From Minisyncoccota bacterium (lineage in GTDB: Bacteria; Patescibacteriota; Minisyncoccia; Moranbacterales; UBA2206): 64,000 nucleotides of DNA. The stretch is from assembly GCA_031291955.1 (NCBI GenBank), contig JARLIA010000005.1:74034-138033 (forward strand), given 5' to 3'. Positions within the stretch are counted from its first letter, which is position 1; every line of letters begins with the position of its first letter. Both the position numbers and the translations under genes were made by a program. This document shows, piece by piece, positions 3,470 through 44,311 of the stretch. The notes under the pieces are model-generated. The model saw nothing but the letters and a program-made list of their open reading frames with translations. It searched no databases and was not told the DNA's origin.

Positions 3470-3587
3470 CTCGGAATCATGGAGCGTGGAACAAAAACAC
3501 TACAGGGGGTAGTGTTTTTTGTTTGGGTGCATATTGAGTAGAGGCCTCTATGGAAGCCTCTATCTTTTAAAATAAAAAAAGTCCAGG

Positions 3588-3612
3588 CGAGACGCGACGC
3601 CTGGACTTTGTG
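3588..3612. terminator. Hairpin terminator (GTCCAGGCG...CGCCTGGAC) between convergent ORFs
   Basis: An inverted repeat with a T/A-rich flank is seen in sequence. Confidence 0.45.
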
Positions 3613-7506: not shown

Positions 7507-7867
7507 AACGAGCAAACTTTGTTAGTTGCTGCGAATTGAAAATAATACGCGGCAATTTTGATTAAAGACTTTATTAATTCAAATCAAGCTATGATTTTTG
7601 AAGCAAAAGATTCAGAAATATTTTCCGAATTGAAGTGAAATAAAAAAAGTGGCGCCTTGATGAAGAGTTGAACTTCAAAGCCAAAAACTATTTTTTGACT
7701 ACTAACCTGTAAGGCAAAAGATTTTGCGAATAATACAAATAATACTAAAGAAGAAAACAAAAAGAAGACAAAAAGCGAAAGACGGAAGAAGAAGCTGATG
7801 AAGCTATTGTATCACAAGAGTATACACGAGGACAGGGAGAAAGTCAAGTCAAGTAGGATAATCAGGC

Positions 7868-9259
7868 TTATTTAGAGGTTTTTTTGTCCCGGTTGTAGAC
7901 GTCTTCATAGCGGATAATGTCATCTTCGCCCAGGTAGCTTCCGGTTTGGACTTCGATGATTTCCAGATTTATTTTGCCGGGGTTGCTGAGGCGATGTTTG
8001 TTGCCCATCGGAATAAAAGTACTTTCGTTTTCATGGAGGGTGATTTCTTTTTCACCGTTGACGATTTGGGCCGTCCCATAGACCACGATCCAGTGTTCGG
8101 CCCGGTGATTGTGGGACTGCAGGCTCAATTTGGCGCCGGGGTAAACCGTGATTTTTTTCACCTGGTGCTGCGAGCCGGCGATCAAGACTTCATATTTCCC
8201 CCAGGGGCGGTGGACGATGATGTTATGCTCCAGTTCCGGCATCTTGTTTTCCTTGAGATAATCAACTATCTTTTTGACGTCCTGGCCGCAGCCTTTCCGG
8301 TGGACCAGGATGCTGTCGGTGTTTTCCACAATAACCAAGTCTTTCACGCCAACGGTGGCAATCAGTTTGTTGCCGGCCGAAAGGGCGTAGATGTTGTCGG
8401 AATCGACGGCGACAGTGCGGGTGCGGTTGTCTTTGCCTTGGATCTCGCTCAAGTTTTCGAACGAGCCGATGTCGCTCCAACCGAAGTTGCCTTCAAAAAC
8501 GACCATGGTTGTAGATTTTTCACTGATAGCGTAGTCGATGGAAGTGGACGGAAGGTTAGAAAAATTTTTAAGCAGTTCAGAGAGACTTCCTGCGGCAATT
8601 TTGGAAATTTCCGGCGCGTGAAGAGCCAGTTCCCGCCAGAAGGCGGCCGGTGTAAAGAGATACATCCCGCCGTTCCAGACGTAAGCGCCCGAGGCTAAAT
8701 ATTTTTCGGCCGTTTCCTTATCTGGTTTTTCGGAAAAACCGGAAACAGTGGAATAGGCACCCTTGTCTTGGTCTTTTTTAATGTAACCGTAGCCGGTTTC
8801 CGGTCGGGTGGGCGTGATGCCGATGGTGCCGATGTTGGCGCCGACGTTTTCAAAGGCGTTTTTTAGGACGGCTAGATATTTCTCCCGATCGCCGATGTAG
8901 TGGTCGGAAGGCAAAAATGCGATCGGTTCGTTTTTCCCGACGCCGAATTTTTCTTCCATATATTTAACAGCGAGCGTGATAGCCGGCGCGGTATTGAGGC
9001 TTTCTGGTTCCACGATGATTTGCGTTTCGTTGAAATCTCCGTTTTCCATTTCCTTGATCTGGTTGGCCACATTGAAAAAACTTTCGTAATTAGTGATGAA
9101 AAAAATGTGGTCGGCCGGCATGAGAGCCCGCATCCGGGAGTATGTTTCCTGGATGAGTGAACGATCGCTGAAAAGGTCGAGGAATTGCTTGGGGAAATTT
9201 TTTCGGGAAAGCGGCCAGAGGCGCGAGCCCGATCCGCCGCAAAGAATGACGCTATACAT
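7868..9259 (-). CDS. manC: Mannose-1-phosphate guanylyltransferase / mannose-6-phosphate isomerase (bifunctional, type II PMI cupin C-terminus)
   Basis: MYSVILCGGSGSRLWPLSRKNFPKQF is the nucleotidyltransferase signature. A cupin domain with HxH occurs near the C-terminus. Confidence 0.85.
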   Translation of the reverse strand: MYSVILCGGSGSRLWPLSRKNFPKQFLDLFSDRSLIQETYSRMRALMPADHIFFITNYESFFNVANQIKEMENGDFNETQIIVEPESLNTAPAITLAVKYMEEKFGVGKNEPIAFLPSDHYIGDREKYLAVLKNAFENVGANIGTIGITPTRPETGYGYIKKDQDKGAYSTVSGFSEKPDKETAEKYLASGAYVWNGGMYLFTPAAFWRELALHAPEISKIAAGSLSELLKNFSNLPSTSIDYAISEKSTTMVVFEGNFGWSDIGSFENLSEIQGKDNRTRTVAVDSDNIYALSAGNKLIATVGVKDLVIVENTDSILVHRKGCGQDVKKIVDYLKENKMPELEHNIIVHRPWGKYEVLIAGSQHQVKKITVYPGAKLSLQSHNHRAEHWIVVYGTAQIVNGEKEITLHENESTFIPMGNKHRLSNPGKINLEIIEVQTGSYLGEDDIIRYEDVYNRDKKTSK

Positions 9260-9279: not shown

Positions 9280-10839
<1,560 letters not shown>

Positions 10840-10850
10840 TTACTTAGCCT

Positions 10851-12665
10851 ATGTCGCCAAAACATATCGCCATTTTGGATTTCGGTTCGCAATATACCCA
10901 TCTTGTCGCCAGAAACATTCGCGAGTTTGGCGTTTTAGCCAAAATTTATCCGACCGACGTGCCGGTTGAAGACTTGAAAGACGCCGAGGGAGTGATTCTT
11001 TCCGGCGGTCCGCAGGCAGTGTATGTCGAAAATTCACTTACTATTGATCCGGATATTTTGAACTTAGGCGTGCCGGTCCTGGGGCTTTGTTACGGACATC
11101 AGTTGTTGGCGCATATCCTGGGCGGGGAAGTGTCGTTGGGAAAAGTAAAAGAGTTTGGTAAGGCAAAATTGACCATCTTAAAGGACAGCCTCATTTTCAG
11201 AGACATCGTCCAAGAGTCGCAGGTCTGGATGAGTCACGGTGACGCAGTCGTCAAAGTGCCGGCTGGATTTGAAATCATCGGAACGACCGTCGATTGTCCG
11301 GTGACGGCTATGGTCGATCCGGCGCGGAAATTTTACGGATTTCAATTTCATCCGGAAGTGGCGCATACGCAAGAAGGCAAAGTCATGTTGTCTAATTTTG
11401 TCCTGGATATTTGCCAAGCGGAAAAAAACTGGCGCGTTGAGAATCTGGTTGACGATCTTTTGGAGAGAATAAAAAAGCAAGTGGGTGAAAAAAAAGTTTT
11501 CATTCTTATGAGCGGCGGCGTCGATTCCAATGTGGCTTTTGCTCTCCTCACTCGGGCGCTCGGTGCTGAGCGGGTGTTGGGACTCTACATCGACACTGGT
11601 TTTATGCGGCAAGACGAGTCGGCGGAAATAAAGCGAGGGTTTGCGCTGGCCGGATTTGAAAACATTCGGACGGTGGACGCCAGCGCCGATTTTTATGCCA
11701 AATTGGAAAATATTTATGAACCGGAGAAGAAAAGAAAAATTATCGGACAAGCCTTTTTGGAAGTTAAGGATAAAATTTCTCAGAACTTAGGACTTAATCC
11801 GGACGAGTGGCTGTTGGGCCAGGGGACGATTTATCCTGACACCATCGAATCGGGCGGCACCCGAAACGCTGACAAGATCAAGACCCACCACAATCGGGTG
11901 GACGCCATTGCCGAAATGATCGAAAAAAGCTTGGTGGTGGAACCCTTGGTGGATTTCTATAAAGATGAAGTGCGGCGCTTGGGGAAATTGCTGGGTCTTC
12001 CGGCGGACCTGATCAACCGCCATCCTTTTCCCGGACCAGGATTGGCCATTCGGACGCTTTGCCGTTCATTGGACCAGGAAGAAAATCTGGTTTTAGTCGA
12101 GCGGAAAGCGGAAGAATTTATTCACAAGAATTTCAAAAATATTTTCAACCGCGTTCTGCCGGTCCGCTCAGTCGGTGTCCAGGGAGACAATCGCACTTAT
12201 TCCCATCCCGTGGCGATCTGGGGCGAGTGCGACTGGCAAAAACTCGGAGAAATTTCCGCGGCGATCACCAATAGCACTCCGGAGATAAATCGGGTGCTCT
12301 TGCTTTTGAACCCGGGAGAAAAAAACGAACTCTTGTCGTCCGGAGAAAATTCATATCTTACTCGGGAAAGAGTGGAAAAATTGCGCCGCATCGATGAAAT
12401 AGTCAATCGGAGCATTAGAGAAGTGGGAATTTACGATTCCATCTGGCAGTTTCCGGTTGTCCTAATCCCAGTCACGGACGAAAGAAAAAAAGAATCAATC
12501 GTGCTTCGGCCGATCAATTCCCGGGATGCCATGACCTTGGATTTTTTTCAAATGGATAAAAAATTGCTGGAAAAAATTACCCAAGATATCTTAGCCACCG
12601 GAGAGATTGGCTATGTCTTTTATGATCTTACTAATAAGCCGCCAGGTACGGTGGAATGGGAATAA
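10851..12665 (+). CDS. guaA: GMP synthase (glutamine-hydrolysing)
   Basis: An N-terminal GATase is present (LGLCYGHQLL), followed by the ATP pyrophosphatase P-loop SGGVDSNVAF and a C-terminal dimerisation domain ending TVEWE. Confidence 0.9.
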   Translation: MSPKHIAILDFGSQYTHLVARNIREFGVLAKIYPTDVPVEDLKDAEGVILSGGPQAVYVENSLTIDPDILNLGVPVLGLCYGHQLLAHILGGEVSLGKVKEFGKAKLTILKDSLIFRDIVQESQVWMSHGDAVVKVPAGFEIIGTTVDCPVTAMVDPARKFYGFQFHPEVAHTQEGKVMLSNFVLDICQAEKNWRVENLVDDLLERIKKQVGEKKVFILMSGGVDSNVAFALLTRALGAERVLGLYIDTGFMRQDESAEIKRGFALAGFENIRTVDASADFYAKLENIYEPEKKRKIIGQAFLEVKDKISQNLGLNPDEWLLGQGTIYPDTIESGGTRNADKIKTHHNRVDAIAEMIEKSLVVEPLVDFYKDEVRRLGKLLGLPADLINRHPFPGPGLAIRTLCRSLDQEENLVLVERKAEEFIHKNFKNIFNRVLPVRSVGVQGDNRTYSHPVAIWGECDWQKLGEISAAITNSTPEINRVLLLLNPGEKNELLSSGENSYLTRERVEKLRRIDEIVNRSIREVGIYDSIWQFPVVLIPVTDERKKESIVLRPINSRDAMTLDFFQMDKKLLEKITQDILATGEIGYVFYDLTNKPPGTVEWE

Positions 12666-17457: not shown

Positions 17458-17506
17458 GATTTAATTATAGCACAAGTCGTGGAACGCAAAACACGAAAGC
17501 GAAAAC

Positions 17507-17534
17507 TTGACGAGGATGGCGGTAGTGTTATAAT
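17507..17534 (+). promoter_or_regulatory. Near-consensus sigma-70-type promoter (TTGACG, 16-nt spacer, TATAAT)
   Basis: TTGACG lies at 17507-17512 and TATAAT at 17529-17534. It lies upstream of the 17554 ORF and uvrB. Confidence 0.45.
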
Positions 17535-17553
17535 AACATGCGATTTTAATCTT

Positions 17554-17838
17554 ATGGAATTCCATAACATTAAAAACGAAGCCGGTTCTAATGGTTTTAT
17601 TCTCTCATCTTCGCGCTGGATAAAAAAGAATCCGAAACTGGCCGGGAATGTTCGCGACTGCGCGGATGTGACGCAATTGGTGTGCTTAGCTAATCTTGAA
17701 AATCTTAACGCCGAATATATCCGCGCCGGATTGCCGCAAAAAGAGCGATTGCTAAACCTGAACCAAAGCGCCATTTCCCAAATGAAATCGTTGGCGGACA
17801 GTCCGGGAATCAGGAAGTTGGAAAACAAAAAATTTTGA
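17554..17838 (+). CDS. Hypothetical protein (94 aa)
   Basis: The listed ORF was trimmed to the first ATG downstream of the predicted promoter. Confidence 0.35.
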   Translation: MEFHNIKNEAGSNGFILSSSRWIKKNPKLAGNVRDCADVTQLVCLANLENLNAEYIRAGLPQKERLLNLNQSAISQMKSLADSPGIRKLENKKF

Positions 17839-17845
17839 CAAGTTT

Positions 17846-20068
17846 ATGGAAAACAAATTCAAAATATCCTCCAAATTCAAGCCCGAAGGCGATCAGCCGC
17901 AGGCGATTGAAAAATTGACCGCGGGGCTTGAGGCTGGAAAAAAGTTCCAGACGCTTTTGGGCGTGACGGGGTCGGGGAAGACTTTTACCATTGCCAACGT
18001 CATTGAAAATATCCAAAAACCGACTTTGGTCATTGCGCCCAACAAGACTTTGGCGGCGCAACTGGCGCAGGAATTTCGGACTTTCTTTCCCAAAAGCGCG
18101 GTGGAATATTTCGTTTCCTATTATGATTATTATCAGCCGGAAGCCTACATCGCTTCCTCCGACACATACATCGAAAAGGAATCCCAGATCAACGACGAGA
18201 TCGACCGGCTTCGCCACGCGGCCACCGCGGCGCTCATGAGTCGCCGCGATGTCATCATTTGCGCTTCGGTGTCGTGTATCTACGGTTTGGGCAGCCCGGA
18301 ATATTATCGGAATATTACGCTGGAATTGGCGGTGGAGGACGGTTATTCGCAGGTTCGGGCGTCCACGCCCGAACCGCATAGTCCTGGTAAAACAAAATTA
18401 TCAGTCAAATCTGAATCGAAAATTTCCGCAGATAATAAAAAATTACCAGAAATGGCAGGTTCAATCGGGACGATTGAACCTGCAAAAAAAAATAATAGGG
18501 ACGAGATTGTAAAAAAATTGATCGACATGCAATATAATCGGAGCGATGTTTTGGCGCGGGGGAAATTCCGGCTGACCGGGAATACTCTGGAAATTATGCC
18601 GCCCGGACGGGAAATTGTAACGAGGATTGAAATGGAAGGGGGCAGTATTAAAAAAATATTCGAGTACGATTTTCTTACCGGCGAGGAACTGGGAAAGCTG
18701 GAAAAAGCGGTCATCTATCCAGCCAAACATTTCGTGGTGCCCGAACCGGTGATGGAAGGCGCTTTGGAAAAAATTCAAAAAGAAATGGAAGAGCAAGTGG
18801 AATTTTTCAAGCGTCAGGGAAAGATTCTGGAAGCGGAAAGGATTTCCCGTCGGACGCGCCAGGACATTGAAATGATGAGGGAAATCGGCTACTGCAATGG
18901 AATTGAAAACTATTCCCGCTTTCTCACTGAACGCCAGCCCGGTGAACCCCCCTACACTTTGATCGATTATTTTCCCGACGATTTTCTCATGGTGATTGAC
19001 GAATCGCATGTGACCGTGCCGCAACTCAACGGAATGTATAACGGCGACCACGCCCGGAAAGTCTCACTGATCGACAACGGCTTCCGCCTGCCTTCGGCTT
19101 TTGATAACCGCCCGCTTAAATTTCCGGAGTTCGAGAAAAAAATAAACCAGCTGATTTTCACGTCGGCGACACCGGCAAAATATGAAATGGAAAAATCAAA
19201 AATAGACCCCCTCTCCCGTAATCGGGAGAGGGTTGGGGAGAGGGCAACGCGGAACTCGGCGCCCTCTCTGTCGCGAGTACGCGACATCTCTCCCGAGTAC
19301 GGGGGAGAGGGAAATATTGTGGAACAAATTATTAGGCCGACCGGACTGATTGATCCAGAGCTGGAAATCAAGCCGACCAGAGGACAGGTGAAAGATGTGA
19401 CGGAGGAGATCAAAAAAATAATCGCCCGGAAGGAGCGGGTGCTTATCACCACGCTGACTAAAAAAATGGCCGAAGACTTGTCGGATTTCTTGAAAGAGAG
19501 CGAAGTGAAAGCTGAATATCTCCATTCCGGCGTGGACACTTTGGACCGGGTGCGGATTTTGGAACAATTGCGCCGGGGAAAATTTGATGTTCTGGTCGGA
19601 GTAAATTTGCTGCGGGAAGGGCTCGATCTTCCCGAAGTTTCTTTGGTGGCGATTCTCGACGCGGACAAAGAAGGATTTTTGCGGAGCGAAACGTCGCTCA
19701 TCCAAACCATCGGCCGCGCCGCGCGGAATGTCAAAGGAAAAGTTATTCTCTACGCCGACACCATTACCGGTTCGATGAAACGAGCTATCGACGAGACAAA
19801 CCGTCGCCGGGCAATCCAGACGGAATATAACAAAAAACATCGTATCACTCCAAAAACCATCAAGAAGAAAATCCAGTCGATCGTCGACCATGAAATCAAA
19901 CCTCAGGTGACGCGCGACTTTTCCCAATTGGAATCATTGGAGGATATGGCCGGCTACATTAAACAACGCGAGCGCGAAATGAAAGACGCGGCCCGGAATT
20001 TGGAATTTGAAAAAGCGGCGATCATCCGGGACGAGATAAGTGAGTTGAGGAAGCTGCAGATAAAATAG
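17846..20068 (+). CDS. uvrB: Excinuclease ABC subunit B, with two in-frame palindrome-bearing insertions
   Basis: Motifs present: GVTGSGKTF, the beta-hairpin region YVSYYDYYQPEAY, the helicase motifs, and the C-terminal UVR domain AAIIRDEISELRKL. The protein is 740 aa, against a typical ~660. Confidence 0.95.
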   Translation: MENKFKISSKFKPEGDQPQAIEKLTAGLEAGKKFQTLLGVTGSGKTFTIANVIENIQKPTLVIAPNKTLAAQLAQEFRTFFPKSAVEYFVSYYDYYQPEAYIASSDTYIEKESQINDEIDRLRHAATAALMSRRDVIICASVSCIYGLGSPEYYRNITLELAVEDGYSQVRASTPEPHSPGKTKLSVKSESKISADNKKLPEMAGSIGTIEPAKKNNRDEIVKKLIDMQYNRSDVLARGKFRLTGNTLEIMPPGREIVTRIEMEGGSIKKIFEYDFLTGEELGKLEKAVIYPAKHFVVPEPVMEGALEKIQKEMEEQVEFFKRQGKILEAERISRRTRQDIEMMREIGYCNGIENYSRFLTERQPGEPPYTLIDYFPDDFLMVIDESHVTVPQLNGMYNGDHARKVSLIDNGFRLPSAFDNRPLKFPEFEKKINQLIFTSATPAKYEMEKSKIDPLSRNRERVGERATRNSAPSLSRVRDISPEYGGEGNIVEQIIRPTGLIDPELEIKPTRGQVKDVTEEIKKIIARKERVLITTLTKKMAEDLSDFLKESEVKAEYLHSGVDTLDRVRILEQLRRGKFDVLVGVNLLREGLDLPEVSLVAILDADKEGFLRSETSLIQTIGRAARNVKGKVILYADTITGSMKRAIDETNRRRAIQTEYNKKHRITPKTIKKKIQSIVDHEIKPQVTRDFSQLESLEDMAGYIKQREREMKDAARNLEFEKAAIIRDEISELRKLQIK

Positions 20069-23014: not shown

Positions 23015-26000
23015 ATGGACAAAATCATCATAAAAGGCGCGCGGGAGCATAATTTGAAGAACGTCGACTTGGAGCTGCCGCGGAATAAATTTATCGTTTT
23101 TACGGGAATTTCTGGGTCAGGGAAGTCGACCATGGCTTTTGATACTATTTTTGCCGAGGGGCAACGGCGCTATCTCGAAAGTCTTTCCAGTTACGCTCGG
23201 CAGTTTTTGGGGCAAATGAATAAGCCTGACGTGGACTATATTGAAGGTCTGTCGCCGGCCATTTCCATCGACCAGAAAGCGGCGTCCCACAATCCGCGTT
23301 CGACGGTTGGAACGGTGACGGAAATCCACGATTATTTGCGATTGCTATATGCCAAGATCGGCCGGCCACATTGTCCGATCTGCTCCCGGGAAATTACGAA
23401 GTTGTCGACAGATGAGATTGTTGATCGGATTTTGGAGATGTGCGCCGCGAAACCTCATCCGCCCCGGAGTACTGGGGCACCTTCTCCTTATAAAGGAGAA
23501 GGAGATAATGGAAGGGGCTGTTCTATCGAAATTCTATCGCCGGTGGTTCGCCAGCGGAAAGGGGAATATTCGACGATGCTGGCTGAGATGTTCCGGCGGG
23601 GGTTTTCCCGCGCTTACGTCAATGGGGAAAAATACGAACTGTCGGCCAAGATCGGAGACGAGTTGGAATTGGCCCGCTACAAAAAACATAATATTGATAT
23701 CGTGGTAGATGAGGTGGAGATATCTAGCGACAACATTTCGCGAATATTTGAAGGAGTGGAAAAGGCGCTGAAGTTGTCGGACGGACTGGTCAAGATAAGA
23801 TCCGAAATCCGAAATACGAAATCCGAAACAATGTCAAAATCAAAAATTAAAAATTCAAAACAAAACAATACGGAAATTGTTTTCAACCAAAAACTTTCTT
23901 GTCCGATCCATGAGATTGAGTTTCCGGAGTTGGAGCCGCGTTTGTTTTCTTTCAACAGTCCGTTTGGCGCTTGTCCGGCTTGCGAAGGATTGGGAACGAA
24001 AAAAGAAATCGACCCGGCGCTGGTGGCGCCGGATAAAAACAAAACGATTGCTGAGGGTGGCATCTTCCCTTGGAGCTACAAACGGAATAACTGGCAAGGG
24101 TCGGTTCTCCGGGCGGTTTGCAATCATTTCCACATCAAAGACAATGTGCGCCTCCGTGACCTTTCGGAAGATGACCTCAACATCTTAATGTTCGGCGGAC
24201 CGGATGCGACCGATATGATAGATAAGGAAGAAGCGGAAGAAATACCCGTCACTTTGAAATCAAAAACCGGTTCAAGCTGGAAATATTACATGACCTGGCG
24301 CGGAGCGGTCGGATATCTTCAAGATCGATATTTCAAGACCGATTCGGATGCGGTGCGGGCGGATATTGAAAAATATATGTCGCAAAATCCGTGTTCGGTC
24401 TGTCACGGCGCGCGTTACAAAAAAGAAGTCTTGCTGGTGACGGTCGGCGAATCCCGCCCGCAACGCTTCGCTAACGCAAGTGTTAGCTTGCGTAGCGATG
24501 CGGGCGGGAAAAATATTGTCGAAGTCTCAAATGTGTCTGTGGCTGAGACGCTTAAATTTTTCGAAAGACTGGAATTGAATAAAAATGAGCAGATCATCGC
24601 CGGGAGAATTTTGAAGGAAATTATTAATCGCCTAGGCTTTTTGGAAAACGTGGGACTGGGATATTTGACTTTGGCCAGATCCGCGGCGACACTAGCCGGC
24701 GGGGAAGCGCAACGGATCCGCTTGGCATCGCAAATCGGTTCGGGTCTCACCGGCGTTTTGTATATTTTGGACGAACCGTCGGTCGGTCTTCACTCGCGCG
24801 ACAACACTAAATTGCTCGAGACGCTTTTTCATCTGCGCGATCTGGGAAACACGCTAATCGTGGTTGAGCACGATGAAGAGACGATGCGGGAGGCCGACTA
24901 TTTGGTTGACATCGGACCGGGAGCGGGAAAATTGGGAGGTAAAATTGTGGCGCATGGCACGCCGGTAGAAGTTATTCGCGATAAAAAATCTTTAACCGCG
25001 GCATATTTGCGGGGTGACGCGAAAATAGAAATGCCGAAATTCCGCCGGCCAGTCAAGAATAAAAAAACGATTGTTGTCCGCGGCGCGCGCGAACACAATT
25101 TGAAAAACATTACCGTCGAGTTTCCTTTAAAAGTTTTGACGTGTGTGACGGGCGTGTCCGGCTCGGGGAAATCCACATTGGTAGAGGACATCCTTTATAA
25201 AGCCTTGGCGTCAAAAATCATGCGGACGCTCGACCGGCCGGGGAAACATTCGGAGATTGTCGGCACGCAATATGTTAACAAAGTGATCATGATCGACCAG
25301 TCGCCGATCGGTCGGACGCCGCGCTCCAATCCGGCGACTTATACCGGGCTCTTTACGCCGATCCGGGAATTATTTTCCCAGACCCGGGACGCCAAATCCA
25401 AGGGTTATGGTCCGGGGCGCTTTTCGTTCAACATCCGGGGCGGACGCTGTGACAACTGCCAAGGCGACGGCCAGCTTAAAATTGAGATGCAGTTCATGCC
25501 GGATGTCTATTTGCCTTGCGATGTCTGTCACGGAAAAAGATACAACAGTGAGACCTTGAAAGTGAAATACAAGGACAAAAACATTTCCGAAGTTTTGGAC
25601 ATGACGGTCAGCGAAGGGCGCGAGTTTTTTGAGAATTTTCCGGCTATTCACGACAAGCTGGCGGTTTTGGAAGACGTCGGCTTGGGCTATATCCAACTCG
25701 GGCAGTCCGCCACCACACTTTCCGGCGGGGAAGCGCAAAGGATAAAACTGGCCACGGAACTGGCAAGGAGGGCGACCGGCGACACTTTGTATATTCTGGA
25801 CGAACCGACGACTGGCCTCCATTTTGACGACATTAAAAAACTTTTGAATGTTTTGAACCGCTTGGTCGATGCCGGCAACACAGTGGTGGTGATCGAACAC
25901 AATTTGGACGTCGTCAAAACCGCCGATTGGATCATTGACTTGGGTCCGGAAGGCGGAGAAGGCGGCGGAAAAATTATCGTTACCGGTCCGCCGGAAGAAG

Positions 26001-26062
26001 TGGCGAAATATCATAAGGAAAGCTGGACGGGAAAGTATCTGAGAGATGTATTGAAAAAGTAG
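23015..26062 (+). CDS. uvrA: Excinuclease ABC subunit A, with two in-frame palindrome-bearing insertions
   Basis: Both ABC modules are present ([18 protein letters not shown]) with LSGGEAQRI signatures and Zn-finger Cys pairs. Length is 1015 aa. Confidence 0.95.
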   Translation: MDKIIIKGAREHNLKNVDLELPRNKFIVFTGISGSGKSTMAFDTIFAEGQRRYLESLSSYARQFLGQMNKPDVDYIEGLSPAISIDQKAASHNPRSTVGTVTEIHDYLRLLYAKIGRPHCPICSREITKLSTDEIVDRILEMCAAKPHPPRSTGAPSPYKGEGDNGRGCSIEILSPVVRQRKGEYSTMLAEMFRRGFSRAYVNGEKYELSAKIGDELELARYKKHNIDIVVDEVEISSDNISRIFEGVEKALKLSDGLVKIRSEIRNTKSETMSKSKIKNSKQNNTEIVFNQKLSCPIHEIEFPELEPRLFSFNSPFGACPACEGLGTKKEIDPALVAPDKNKTIAEGGIFPWSYKRNNWQGSVLRAVCNHFHIKDNVRLRDLSEDDLNILMFGGPDATDMIDKEEAEEIPVTLKSKTGSSWKYYMTWRGAVGYLQDRYFKTDSDAVRADIEKYMSQNPCSVCHGARYKKEVLLVTVGESRPQRFANASVSLRSDAGGKNIVEVSNVSVAETLKFFERLELNKNEQIIAGRILKEIINRLGFLENVGLGYLTLARSAATLAGGEAQRIRLASQIGSGLTGVLYILDEPSVGLHSRDNTKLLETLFHLRDLGNTLIVVEHDEETMREADYLVDIGPGAGKLGGKIVAHGTPVEVIRDKKSLTAAYLRGDAKIEMPKFRRPVKNKKTIVVRGAREHNLKNITVEFPLKVLTCVTGVSGSGKSTLVEDILYKALASKIMRTLDRPGKHSEIVGTQYVNKVIMIDQSPIGRTPRSNPATYTGLFTPIRELFSQTRDAKSKGYGPGRFSFNIRGGRCDNCQGDGQLKIEMQFMPDVYLPCDVCHGKRYNSETLKVKYKDKNISEVLDMTVSEGREFFENFPAIHDKLAVLEDVGLGYIQLGQSATTLSGGEAQRIKLATELARRATGDTLYILDEPTTGLHFDDIKKLLNVLNRLVDAGNTVVVIEHNLDVVKTADWIIDLGPEGGEGGGKIIVTGPPEEVAKYHKESWTGKYLRDVLKK

Positions 26063-26067
26063 AAATT

Positions 26068-27327
26068 ATGACGACCATCCTCCAAAAGCTGAAAAACCTG
26101 CCTCAATCACCGGGGGTGTATATTTTCTATGATAAAAATAGAAATATTTTGTACGTGGGAAAAGCGACGTCGCTTAAAGATAGGGTTGGTTCGTATTTTC
26201 AGAATAAGATTGGGGCGGTGCGGACGATTGAGATGTATATGAATGAAGTGACGGATCTGGAGATCAAGAAAACCGACACGGTTTTGGAAGCGTATATTTT
26301 GGAACAATCTTTGATCAAAAAACTTCAGCCGAAATATAACGCGATGGGGAAAGACGATAAGTCATTTACGTACGTACTTCTTTCTAAGGAAGAATTTCCG
26401 AGATTCGCGGTGGTACGGGAAACTGATTTGGATAGTGTAAAATCATCGCCCCGTGGGGGGCAAAAATCTTTGCCCCCCACGGCGAAGGTTTATGGTCCGT
26501 ATACGTCGAAACGGCAAATTGAGGCGGCCTTGAAAATCTTACGGAAAATTTTTCCCTATCACAACCGGCCGGAACATTCGGAGTCCCGGTGTTTTGATTA
26601 TCATCTTGGGCTTTGCCCCGGACCGTATGACGGGAAGATTTCCAAAAAAGAATACGTCAAAAATATCCGGGCGATAAAAATGATCTTGGAAGGGAAGAAG
26701 AAAGGACTTATAAACCGGATGAAAAAAGAGATGGAAGAATGTTCAGACAAGGCTGAATTTGAAAAGGCGGCGGAGGTGCGGAACAGGATTTTTGCGTTGC
26801 AACACATCCAGGACGTGGCGCTGATATCTGATCATAGAGACGCAATTAATCGCGTCTCTGTGGACGACGCAATGATGCGCATCGAAGGTTATGATATTTC
26901 CAATATTTCCGGGAAATTTGCGACTGGTTCGATGGTGGTGTTTGATAATTCAGACGGTGAAATGCAGCCGAATAAATCGCAATATCGTAAATTCAAAATC
27001 AAAAATGTTGAAGGCGCCAATGACGTGGGGGCAATGGAAGAAATGCTTACCAGGAGATTTCGGAACAATTGGCCGCGGCCGAATTTGATTTTGCTCGACG
27101 GCGGAGCCGGGCATTTGAATATGGCGCGGAAAGTCCTGCGGAATCACAAAATAGAAATTCCCTTGCTGGCGGTGGCCAAAGGGCCGGCGCGGAAAAAACT
27201 GGATCTGCGAAGTTTCGGGACCGTGCCGGAACTGCCAAAAAATATCATCGAACAAGTGAGAAACGAAGCGCATCGCTTCGCGATCAGTTATCATAGGAAA
27301 TTGAGAGGTAAATCGTTCACGGATTAA
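26068..27327 (+). CDS. uvrC: Excinuclease ABC subunit C, short form lacking the C-terminal (HhH)2 domain
   Basis: A GIY-YIG N-terminus is present (PGVYIFYDKNRNILYVGKA). A UVR motif (FEKAAEVRNRIFALQ) follows. The RNase-H-like endonuclease domain is present (ILLDGGAGHL). The protein ends at 419 aa. Confidence 0.8.
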   Translation: MTTILQKLKNLPQSPGVYIFYDKNRNILYVGKATSLKDRVGSYFQNKIGAVRTIEMYMNEVTDLEIKKTDTVLEAYILEQSLIKKLQPKYNAMGKDDKSFTYVLLSKEEFPRFAVVRETDLDSVKSSPRGGQKSLPPTAKVYGPYTSKRQIEAALKILRKIFPYHNRPEHSESRCFDYHLGLCPGPYDGKISKKEYVKNIRAIKMILEGKKKGLINRMKKEMEECSDKAEFEKAAEVRNRIFALQHIQDVALISDHRDAINRVSVDDAMMRIEGYDISNISGKFATGSMVVFDNSDGEMQPNKSQYRKFKIKNVEGANDVGAMEEMLTRRFRNNWPRPNLILLDGGAGHLNMARKVLRNHKIEIPLLAVAKGPARKKLDLRSFGTVPELPKNIIEQVRNEAHRFAISYHRKLRGKSFTD

Positions 27328-42667: not shown

Positions 42668-44311
42668 ATGCGAAATCCGAATATGAAGAAAAAAAATAAC
42701 ACAATAAAAAACGTTCCACGTTTTACGCTACGCGTTTCGCGACGCGAAGGATCGGCTTTGGCATACGCTTTAATTATTATGTTGGCTGTGATGATTATTC
42801 TGACGTCCCTTATCAGTTATATCGTGAGCCAAATGAACTACAGTTCCAACCAGGCGGAGAGGCAGGAAGCTTTCGAAGTGGCGGAAGCGGGCGTCTCTTG
42901 GTATAACTGGTATCTGGCCCACCAAACCGACGGCAAAACGGCCCAGCAGATCAATAACTTTTGGCAGGGAACAAGTCCCAGTCCTTTAGGCATTGGTTCT
43001 CTCTATCAGCAAACCTTTACCGCTCCGGACGGACAGACGCTGGGAAGTTACAGTCTGGATGTTCAGCGCCCCGTTCTTGGCTCGACGATCGTGATAGTTA
43101 AATCGACCGGTTGGACCAATCGGGCGCCGAATGAAAAGCGGACGATCCAAGTTCGGTTTCGTCGTCCTTCCTGGAGTGAATATGCTGTTCTGGCTAACGA
43201 TGTGATGAGGTTCGGACAAGGAACGGTGATCAATGGAAAGATCCAATCCAATTATGGTATTCGTATGGATGGAACGGCTAATAACGTCGTCTCCAGTTCA
43301 GTGGCTTCCTATGACGATCCCGACCACAGCGGCAAAGTGGAGTATGGGGTGCATACGCATCTCATTCCGCCGGCAGATACAAGCCTGGCCGATCCTTATC
43401 TTAATAACGAAGCCCCGGCCAACAACGGTCTCATCCCGCCGGATCGGCCGGATGTTTTCAAGGCCGGCCGTAAATTTCCAGTGCCGACAGTGAGCTTTAC
43501 CGGCGTAACTTCCGATTTGGCTTATATGAAAACTCAAGCGCAATCCGGTAGCGGGAAATATTTTGACAATACCGGCAAAGGGCGTCAAATAATCTTGAAT
43601 TCGAACGGTACCTATACGGTTTATACTGTCAATTCTTATGACGCGCCGCCCTCTCCCTTGCCTTCTTCAACTTCCAACACCAATTCCATCACTGGTTACG
43701 CGGGTACCAAAAATTCCAACGGAACCGGCTCGGCTTGCACGGCGTTAGTAACAATGAACGGGCCAAACACGCAATGCAAAAACAAAACAACCGGCTCTAC
43801 TTGCTATTGTTCTTCAGCGACTTATACTATTCCCAATAATGGCATTATTTTCGTAGAGGACAATATTTGGCTGGAGGGCACAATCAATAAAGAAAAGGTG
43901 ACGATTGTGGCCGCCAATATGGGCAGCGGAACGCAGGCCAATATTTTTGTCGGCAACAACAATATTCTTTATACCAATTTTGACGGGCAAGATATTCTGG
44001 GCGTGATTGCTCAAGATGACGTGGAAGTGATCAAAAACAGTCAGACCACTCTGACTTTGGACGGTGCCTTCATCGCTCAGAACGGCCGGGTGGGGCGCGA
44101 TAACTACGGCACTTCTGACTATAAAAATTCCATCACTGTCAATGGCTCCATCGCGACCAATCAGCGTTATGGTTTTTCTTGGACAGATGGATTTAATAGC
44201 TGGGGATATGACGATCGCATCCTGAACTTCGACAACAATTTGATCTATTATCCGCCGCCCTATTTTCCGACCGGTACCGAGTATTCCATAGATCTATGGA
44301 AAGAGCTGTGA
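42668..44311 (+). CDS. PilX-like pilus-associated protein (N-terminal hydrophobic helix, large extracellular domain)
   Basis: GSALAYALIIMLAVMIILTSLISYIV followed by ...EVAEAGVSWYNWYL resembles the PilX N-terminal region. It lies within the pilus locus. Confidence 0.5.
   Translation: MRNPNMKKKNNTIKNVPRFTLRVSRREGSALAYALIIMLAVMIILTSLISYIVSQMNYSSNQAERQEAFEVAEAGVSWYNWYLAHQTDGKTAQQINNFWQGTSPSPLGIGSLYQQTFTAPDGQTLGSYSLDVQRPVLGSTIVIVKSTGWTNRAPNEKRTIQVRFRRPSWSEYAVLANDVMRFGQGTVINGKIQSNYGIRMDGTANNVVSSSVASYDDPDHSGKVEYGVHTHLIPPADTSLADPYLNNEAPANNGLIPPDRPDVFKAGRKFPVPTVSFTGVTSDLAYMKTQAQSGSGKYFDNTGKGRQIILNSNGTYTVYTVNSYDAPPSPLPSSTSNTNSITGYAGTKNSNGTGSACTALVTMNGPNTQCKNKTTGSTCYCSSATYTIPNNGIIFVEDNIWLEGTINKEKVTIVAANMGSGTQANIFVGNNNILYTNFDGQDILGVIAQDDVEVIKNSQTTLTLDGAFIAQNGRVGRDNYGTSDYKNSITVNGSIATNQRYGFSWTDGFNSWGYDDRILNFDNNLIYYPPPYFPTGTEYSIDLWKEL

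Follow-up and report, generated by a model that had tools for sequence, protein, structure and literature searches.

Two in-frame palindromic inserts in uvrB of a Moranbacterales bacterium, probably of the REP/REPIN type

Overview

The uvrB gene of a Minisyncoccota bacterium (order Moranbacterales) carries two extra segments within its coding sequence, here called insertion 1 and insertion 2. We analyzed the gene in a stretch of 64,000 nucleotides (assembly GCA_031291955.1, contig JARLIA010000005.1, positions 74,034 to 138,033), hereafter the window. Both segments are probably non-autonomous palindromic repeats of the repetitive extragenic palindrome (REP)/REPIN type that landed in uvrB and were kept because they are in frame, are free of stop codons, and sit in tolerant interdomain linkers. 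The description that fits insertion 1 best is that of a REPIN-like doublet, and its ends are also found on either side of a gene for a tyrosine transposase of the REP-associated (RAYT) type. Intragenic REPs in repair genes, uvrB among them, were already described in 2013 (PMC3733652). New here are the lineage, the fast turnover, the linked candidate transposase, and the two-site hotspot.

Two extra segments interrupt UvrB at domain boundaries

With 740 amino acids, the window UvrB exceeds its shortest orthologues and the chains deposited in the PDB (652–661 amino acids), in agreement with the ∼80 additional residues noted in a preliminary description of this DNA. The solved UvrB chain 9gy7_E aligns over the full length (phmmer, E 1.7e-249) in three blocks that are broken only at the two inserts, and Pfam recognizes the domains ResIII, UvrB_inter, Helicase_C, UvrB, and UVR. 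The extra segments had been placed at points where canonical UvrB is continuous. Indeed, alignment to the solved chains leaves two stretches of the query unmatched (residues ∼162–209/216 and 452–489), and the B. caldotenax reference runs on without a break at the corresponding positions (∼161–168 and 403–405). The site of insertion 1 is directly N-terminal to UvrB_inter (Pfam start at residue 211), and that of insertion 2 is the linker before the second helicase domain (Helicase_C start at residue 520). The host gene and the two segments are as follows.

17846–20068, + strand: uvrB coding sequence, host of both insertions, 740 amino acids (open reading frame list, phmmer, Pfam)
18343–18489, + strand: insertion 1 as an extra protein segment, residues ∼166–214, 147 nt, a gap relative to PDB UvrB chains and orthologues
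19199–19312, + strand: insertion 2 as an extra protein segment, residues 452–489, 114 nt, a gap relative to PDB UvrB chains and orthologues
Junction-spanning peptides of the predicted window UvrB: ...VEDGYSQVRASTPEPH... and ...EKSKIDPLSRNRER...

As proposed earlier, both inserts keep the reading frame: their lengths (about 147 and 114 nt) are multiples of three, and neither contains a stop codon. An AlphaFold model, for which 73 orthologues served as input, shows the normal UvrB fold overall; the predicted local distance difference test score (pLDDT) drops below 50, and secondary structure is absent, exactly at residues 166–214 and 459–488. Both inserts are therefore predicted to be disordered loops. 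A reading of the inserts as a conserved UvrB domain was rejected. The identical uvrB with both inserts is present in an independent Logan assembly (SRR23300978), which rules out an assembly artefact.

At the DNA level, both segments fold strongly as single strands, at −35.3 kcal/mol for insertion 1 (z −8.4) and −39.4 kcal/mol for insertion 2 (z −7.7), and 0 of 200 shuffles folded as well as either of them. The window contains 18 perfect hairpins whose stems reach 9 bp or more, as against ∼2 in shuffled sequence. Three of these 18 lie inside uvrB, and most of the remainder look like terminators (A-run, stem, T-run). A terminator reading was rejected for the insert, because on the coding strand an A-run and not a T-run comes after the second hairpin of insertion 1. 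The inserts had been called GC-rich, which is correct for insertion 2 (67%) and, within insertion 1, for the first hairpin; the GC content is 44% over all of insertion 1 and 49% over the uvrB gene.

Insertion 1 is an inverted doublet with dispersed relatives

Insertion 1 consists of 42-nt inverted ends, each with a 10-bp hairpin, around an AT-rich spacer. Its left end aligns over ∼42 nt with the reverse complement of its right end and also with the ends of other copies; the inverted repeat I2 of the insert spans 18343–64/18468–89.

18349–18483, + strand: core of insertion 1, REPIN-like inverted doublet GCAGGTTC...GAACCTGC, 135 nt; family copies share its ends
18349–18390, + strand: left terminal repeat, 42 nt, holding the hairpin at 18352–18375
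18443–18483, − strand: right terminal repeat, inverted copy, 41 nt, holding the hairpin at 18455–18483
18352–18375: hairpin GGTTCGGGCG-TCCA-CGCCCGAACC
18455–18483: hairpin GCAGGTTCAATCG-GGA-CGATTGAACCTGC, 13-bp stem

The hairpins of both insertions are present where the preliminary description had put them, except that the stem of the second hairpin of insertion 1 is one base pair longer than was claimed. That each insert is built of perfect hairpins was a slight overstatement: the fourth hairpin of insertion 2 is imperfect, with 8 nt standing against 10.

Fifteen ends of the insertion 1 family could be aligned. All of them start with an invariant 5′ GCAG, and the 10-bp stem is paired at 98.7%, with three of its ten pairs changed on both sides (variants GGGCG/CGCCC, AATCG/CGATT, AGGCG/CGCCT, and AAGCG/CGCTT). 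None of 500 shuffles attained the observed covariation. The compensatory changes thus point to selection on the family ends as an intrastrand hairpin.

The units are not unique to uvrB; both families occur at unrelated loci, intergenic as well as in frame. For insertion 1, a 26-nt stretch of the right end matches positions 7588–7613 of locus L002 exactly, and thereby revealed a complete copy, 0.7 kb upstream of uvrB of orthologue P0003. A pattern scan of metagenome contigs (L124–L130) yielded further copies, so that the family, with copies of 105–138 nt, is now represented at L002, L125 (at least two), L128, L129, L126, and L124. Intergenic copies include those of L125 (twice) and L128. The copy of L129 (7746–7883) lies in frame in an unrelated membrane protein of 715 amino acids and is read in the same frame as in uvrB, giving the peptide QVQASTPEPRVSGK...GSIETIEPA (QVQASTPEP...GSIETIEPA) as compared with QVRASTPEPHSPGK...GSIGTIEPA in the window UvrB. 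The copy of L126 provides the C terminus and the stop codon of an open reading frame.

Intergenic copies of insertion 1 (L002, L128) have stops in all six frames, whereas genic copies are open in the frame that is used (+1 in uvrB). Only translation of the insert would lead one to expect this pattern. It also bears on the idea that the segments are intervening sequences, akin to a mini-intron or an intein, whose removal would leave a canonical functional UvrB. Bacteria of the candidate phyla radiation (CPR) are known to carry unusual intervening sequences in their rRNA genes, and the strong folding of the inserts and their positions, exactly where the canonical sequence is continuous, would suit such elements. 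However, a sequence that is removed would not call for genic copies that are in frame and without stops next to intergenic copies of the same family that are closed in all frames. With 38 and 49 amino acids, the segments are also much too small to be inteins, whose terminal motifs they lack. A permissive Rfam scan of 18200–19450 returned three weak matches, all far under the gathering scores, and hence no significant match to an intron or any other RNA family. We rejected an intein or intron identity on these grounds and regard intervening sequences in general as extremely improbable.

Several observations concern the surroundings of insertion 1-type units. In the genome of P0003 (L002), a 48-nt copy of the uvrB 5′ end (7537–7584 versus 8259–8306, 44/48 identical) sits 0.7 kb upstream of uvrB and is immediately followed by the insertion 1-type doublet. 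On contig L125, a duplication of ∼470 nt (about 9321–9789 versus 11200–11669) includes the first 114 codons of mreB and lies beside doublets and the RAYT unit described below. Insertion 1-type repeats seem to go together with duplicated 5′ ends of genes. In the window, an intergenic hairpin at 3578–3609 (AAAGTCCAGGCG...CGCCTGGACTTT, 12-bp stem) resembles the CCAGGCG/CGCCTGG stems of insertion 1-type units (e.g. the right end of L128); it could be a solitary unit of this type or simply a terminator.

Insertion 2 is a hairpin cluster shared with other Moranbacteria genes

Insertion 2 is made up of clustered GGGAGAGGG-type hairpins, and its ends are inverted. The inverted repeat I1 (19207–30/19288–311) comprises 24 nt that are 88% complementary.

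19207–19247, + strand: module A, CCCCCTCTCCCG-TAAT-CGGGAGAGGG-TT-GGGGAGAGGGC, with hairpin H1 at 19209–19232
19261–19311, + strand: module B, CCCTCTCTGTCGCGAGTACGCGACATCTCTCCCGAGTACGGGGGAGAGGG, with H3 at 19270–85 and H4 at 19288–19309; its end repeats the left end in inverted form
19209–19232: hairpin H1, CCCTCTCCCG-TAAT-CGGGAGAGGG
19238–45/19261–68: paired arms GAGAGGGC/GCCCTCTC
19270–85: hairpin H3, GTCGCG-AGTA-CGCGAC
19288–19309: hairpin H4, CTCTCCCG-AGTA-CGGGGGAGAG, imperfect

The uvrB gene of P0003 (L002) carries the same element at the same place with a different spacer. Between the two, H3 shows a compensatory change (GTCGCG/CGCGAC in the window versus GTCACG/CGTGAC). The element is 86% identical overall and 91–92% identical in the hairpin modules, whereas identity between the host genes is 76%, falling to 54% at third codon positions. 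Insertion 2 has thus diverged less than the gene around it and is either constrained or younger than the split of the genes.

A scan of species-representative genomes with a 23-nt core of the element uncovered its relatives. Module A recurs at the Moranbacteria loci L018/L002, L046, L053, L073 (two copies), and L074 with 91–97% identity, and module B is 92% identical to L002 and 91% to L074. At L074, which belongs to the same genome as P0003 (bin-5474), the copy lies in a MiaB-like gene in reverse orientation and in frame (PSPQPSPEYGRGG...), so that this genome holds the element in both uvrB and miaB. Another Moranbacteria genome (L046) has a copy in the orthologous MiaB-like gene, likewise in reverse orientation. 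Further copies are in frame in PriA (L073) and PolA (L053), and one copy of L073 is intergenic. Across the Moranbacteria MiaB-like, PriA, and PolA genes, the family thus occurs in frame in both orientations; the element itself is open in five of six frames. No GTAG- or CGTC-type tag was found in the units of insertion 2. A word-indexed protein search with the 41-residue insertion 2 peptide returned nothing that shares three 5-residue words, which reflects a limit of the tool and is not evidence of absence.

The 23-nt core, CGGGAGAGGG-NN-GGGGAGAGGGC, is also found in phyla far from Moranbacteria, usually after the matching arm (as CCCTCTCCCG-CTTG-CGGGAGAGGG-NN-GGGGAGAGGGC). Its distant hosts (L004–L123) include Cupriavidus, Pseudomonas, Bradyrhizobium, Planctomycetota, Myxococcota, Chloroflexota, and Bacteroidota. 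This distribution could stem from common ancestry, from horizontal spread, or from a low-complexity hairpin that arose convergently. The core fits the GGGGWSAS motif of repeats that flank TIRYT genes (PMC3733652). Two other in-frame segments were seen at the loci with insertion 2-type copies: a second insert, VIASVAKQSRN...LPRNNK, in the MiaB-like gene of L046 (1921–3237, − strand) and a RSTGHPLPVTGEEG segment in GltX of L073 (214–1827, − strand).

Insertion 1-type ends enclose a RAYT-type transposase gene

On two contigs (L124, 125–748; L125, 10585–11209), a unit of ∼625 bp lies between inverted insertion 1-type ends. Its gene, at 10662–11204 on L125, specifies a protein of 180 amino acids in which an HUH motif (MINHIHLII) and a tyrosine region, YINDNP, can be recognized. 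The protein scores 24.7 bits against Pfam Y1_Tnp, over the cut-off of 23, and matches the NCBIfam model REP_Tyr_transpos (REP-associated tyrosine transposase) with an E value of 1.7e-21. Homologues are named RayT by the Joint Genome Institute and NCBI and include proteins from Moranbacteria, Patescibacteria, and Paceibacterota metagenome-assembled genomes (MAGs). Because the same units flank such a gene elsewhere, the mobilizer of insertion 1 would most likely be a RAYT-family (Y1/HUH) tyrosine transposase that acts in trans on the single-stranded DNA hairpin. A different Y1_Tnp protein of 191 amino acids is encoded on the Moranbacteria contig L073 (1883–2458, − strand), where it is flanked by other small hairpins.

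A number of observations weigh against a REP/REPIN-type origin of the inserts or against a role of RAYT in this genome. The window contains no RAYT gene, and a search with exact and 1–3-mismatch patterns detected no further unit of either insertion in it outside uvrB; a lone CCCTCTCCC at 43649 is an isolated 9-mer. Neither a target-site duplication nor a defined target was seen at the copies inspected. No RAYT-like open reading frame lies beside the insertion 2 core motif at 120 loci from many phyla, as judged by a heuristic search for HUH and Y..NP motifs. The NCBIfam score of the 180-residue protein (76.6 bits) is just under the curated cut-off of 80, and the copies that flank its gene (L124, L125) come from other metagenomic contigs whose taxonomy is not directly established. 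The 5′ tag of insertion 1 ends is GCAG in 15 of 15 cases and differs from the GTAG or CGTC of known REPs. Finally, translation of the inserts is inferred. Dispersal in multiple copies is seen at the family level, with at least four insertion 1-type units on L125, uvrB and miaB of bin-5474, and the two copies of L073, whereas the window has no second copy.

[quoted passage not shown] Both inserts have such repeats (42 nt in insertion 1, 24 nt at 88% complementarity in insertion 2), are 105–147 nt long, and are non-coding on their own, and none of the 120 motif loci had an adjacent RAYT in the heuristic search. The idea is most plausible for insertion 2. However, no copy shows a target-site duplication, and a DDE transposase bounded by matching ends was not encountered; the only gene found between such ends encodes a Y1/HUH transposase. 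The compensatory changes and G-T pairs in the ends also argue for selection on a single-strand hairpin and not on a duplex binding site. We therefore consider MITEs unlikely and favor REP/REPIN-type repeats for both inserts.

The two sites are occupied by many families that turn over quickly

We compared the window UvrB with its 120 closest UvrB proteins (652–739 amino acids), which are named Moranbacteria, Parcubacteria, or Patescibacteria, and called an insert where the joint alignment had at least 5 extra residues at a site. Inserts are present at site 1 in 41 and at site 2 in 55 of the 120 orthologues, and nearly all length variation is found at these two sites. The insert peptides fall into at least 9 unrelated families, including PLSRxRERxGERA...SPEYxGEG, SPRERM...SQRERG, VETRHASSL, PSPYKGEG, VIASEAKQS...LPRNDN, NPKSQINSKS, GHPLPxxGEG, and others, and the same families appear at either site. 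Those orthologue inserts whose DNA was examined are palindromes. At site 1, P0001 and P0003 have a hairpin with a 22–25-bp stem and a compensatory difference between the two; site 2 of P0001 holds GAGACGAGGCACGCCTCGTCTC. In the uvrB of P0021, one and the same 52-nt two-hairpin element occupies both sites. P0010 lacks inserts altogether, and the empty sites can be read from its DNA.

The inserts are not a conserved feature of UvrB. Instead of being shared by unrelated UvrB proteins, they are absent from close orthologues or swapped for other palindromes. UvrB cores that are 92–96% identical differ in the presence or the family of their inserts, and P0001, the nearest relative with a core identity of 92.8%, holds other elements than the window gene at each of the two sites. 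Turnover of the inserts is therefore much more rapid than the evolution of the protein. Together with the copies at unrelated loci, their absence or replacement in close orthologues supports the earlier suggestion of selfish in-frame palindromes like those of Rickettsia.

A contrary view would see in the inserts lineage-specific loops of UvrB that are functionally selected and have diversified in place, their hairpins being retained for mRNA stability, for translational pausing between domains, or for protein contacts. Such loops would be adaptive and not selfish. Inserts at both sites are indeed very common in the clade, both sites are at domain boundaries, and between the window and P0003, conservation of insertion 2 far exceeds that of synonymous sites in the host gene. 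Yet high conservation is equally expected of a repeat family that is constrained by its transposase or was inserted recently. The same sites harbor at least 9 unrelated families and are without any insert in many close relatives, unrelated genes and intergenic regions contain the same elements, and the predicted structure is disordered. Functional selection in place is thus an improbable explanation, even more so than the MITEs considered above, and we retain the reading of the inserts as REP/REPIN-type repeats.

In-frame hairpins in uvrA and uvrC

An unbiased hairpin scan showed that most GC-rich intragenic hairpins of the window fall in uvrA, uvrB, and uvrC, with few other genes concerned. 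In uvrA (23015–26059, + strand), the two-hairpin element known from P0021 is present in frame at 23451–23502 (AAKPHPPRSTGAPSPYKGEG), and a second extra segment (SEIRNTKSETMSKSKIKNSKQNN) is located at about 23800–23870. Both are gaps relative to the UvrA structure 2r6f of the PDB. Two in-frame hairpins are found in uvrC (26068–27324, + strand), CCGTGGGGGGCAAAAATCTTTGCCCCCCACGG at 26451–26482 (SSPRGGQKSLPPTA) and AGAGACGCAATTAATCGCGTCTCT at 26836–26859 (RDAINRVS type). Hairpins of 8 bp in the IMPDH and phosphorylase genes (9909, 54528) gave no sign of insertion.

Directly upstream of uvrB lies an open reading frame of 119 amino acids (17479–17838, + strand) without a Pfam match. The loci of P0001, P0010, and P0021 lack it but are otherwise syntenic; their gene order is SBP_bac_5, SecG, a holin-like gene, a small open reading frame, and uvrB.

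Comparison with known repeat systems

REPINs, a concept reportedly owed to Bertels and Rainey, and the wider REP/RAYT systems consist of short hairpin-forming repeats arranged in inverted doublets, and the inserts resemble them in this respect, with perfect stems of 10–13 bp. The likeness extends to units that flank a Y1/HUH transposase gene of the RAYT type (here only in the insertion 1 family), to copies that are both intergenic and in frame within genes, and to hosts that are often replication or repair genes (here uvrA, uvrB, polA, and priA). The systems differ in the 5′ tag noted above, in the two fixed linker sites that many families occupy across orthologues, and in the host, which here is a Moranbacteria-like bacterium of the CPR. 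Di Nocera et al. (2013) reported an enrichment of intragenic REPs among genes for replication and repair, with uvrA and uvrB among them, as well as cases in polA and similar genes; they list two insertions in one uvrB homologue of R. conorii and several in uvrA (PMC3733652). The same work describes RAYT and TIRYT genes flanked by REPs or by long inverted repeats (TIRs), forming REPtron and TIRtron systems (PMC3733652). The 42-nt terminal repeat of insertion 1 with its hairpin is closer to the TIRtron picture. Our literature search found no description of such elements in CPR bacteria/Patescibacteria.

In-frame palindromic elements are the hallmark of the Rickettsia palindromic elements (RPEs; Ogata et al. 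2000, 2002, summarized in PMC10969869), to which the inserts had been likened. The two systems have in common palindromic repeats of 100–150 bp, in-frame positions in unrelated housekeeping genes (here UvrB, MiaB-like, PriA, PolA, and a membrane protein), and extra peptide segments at fold-compatible positions, which in our case are predicted disordered loops. In neither has the mobilizing mechanism been demonstrated. The likeness concerns the mode of insertion and not the sequence, because the inserts are not members of the RPE families. The host belongs to another phylum, its UvrB being closest to Moranbacteria/Parcubacteria proteins; the insert peptides, compared by eye only, are unlike the R. 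conorii examples in the supplement of PMC3733652; and a candidate transposase of the RAYT type is linked to one family.

Bacterial MITEs within genes, such as ERIC, Correia/NEMIS, and the Coxiella QMITE (PMC10969869), are likewise small and non-autonomous, have inverted ends, and can create in-frame fusions. In contrast to these, neither a target-site duplication nor a related DDE insertion sequence was found here, and the ends show the covariation of a single-strand hairpin.

A model for the origin and persistence of the inserts

The observed anatomy, family membership, dispersal, in-frame use, and turnover among orthologues could be joined as follows. The hairpin elements would have arrived by transposition of single-stranded DNA, mobilized in trans, which for insertion 1 in this genome would presumably mean transposition by a RAYT. 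Only those insertions would have survived that were in frame, free of stops, and located in permissive loops. The inserts would then be translated into disordered loops with little effect on UvrB, and their consequences for the protein would probably be neutral or nearly so.

The reuse of the two uvrB sites by many families could result from selection alone or from preferential insertion at or next to existing hairpins. Taken further, the latter idea would make the UvrB linkers and the similar linkers of UvrA and UvrC active landing pads, in which a resident hairpin attracts further RAYT-mediated insertions or replacements. We regard this extension as doubtful, if less so than the rival explanations discussed above.

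Implications

Protein genes of the small, reduced CPR genomes are colonized in frame by hairpin repeats, as in Rickettsia. One of the families is tied to a transposase of the RAYT type, which gives a starting point for learning how in-frame palindromes spread, a question not yet answered for RPEs. In CPR MAGs, proteins become longer and more varied in length through such inserts, and annotation and alignment can be misled.

The two UvrB linkers with their at least nine element families constitute a natural system to separate targeting from selection, and the same system bears on why repair genes are favored hosts, a point left unexplained in 2013. If the linkers did act as landing pads, the nucleotide-excision-repair proteins of Moranbacteria would carry rapidly renewed, disordered loops encoded by hairpins, and repeats would be enriched in repair genes on account of a mechanistic or selfish connection of hairpin DNA to excision repair and not of tolerance alone.

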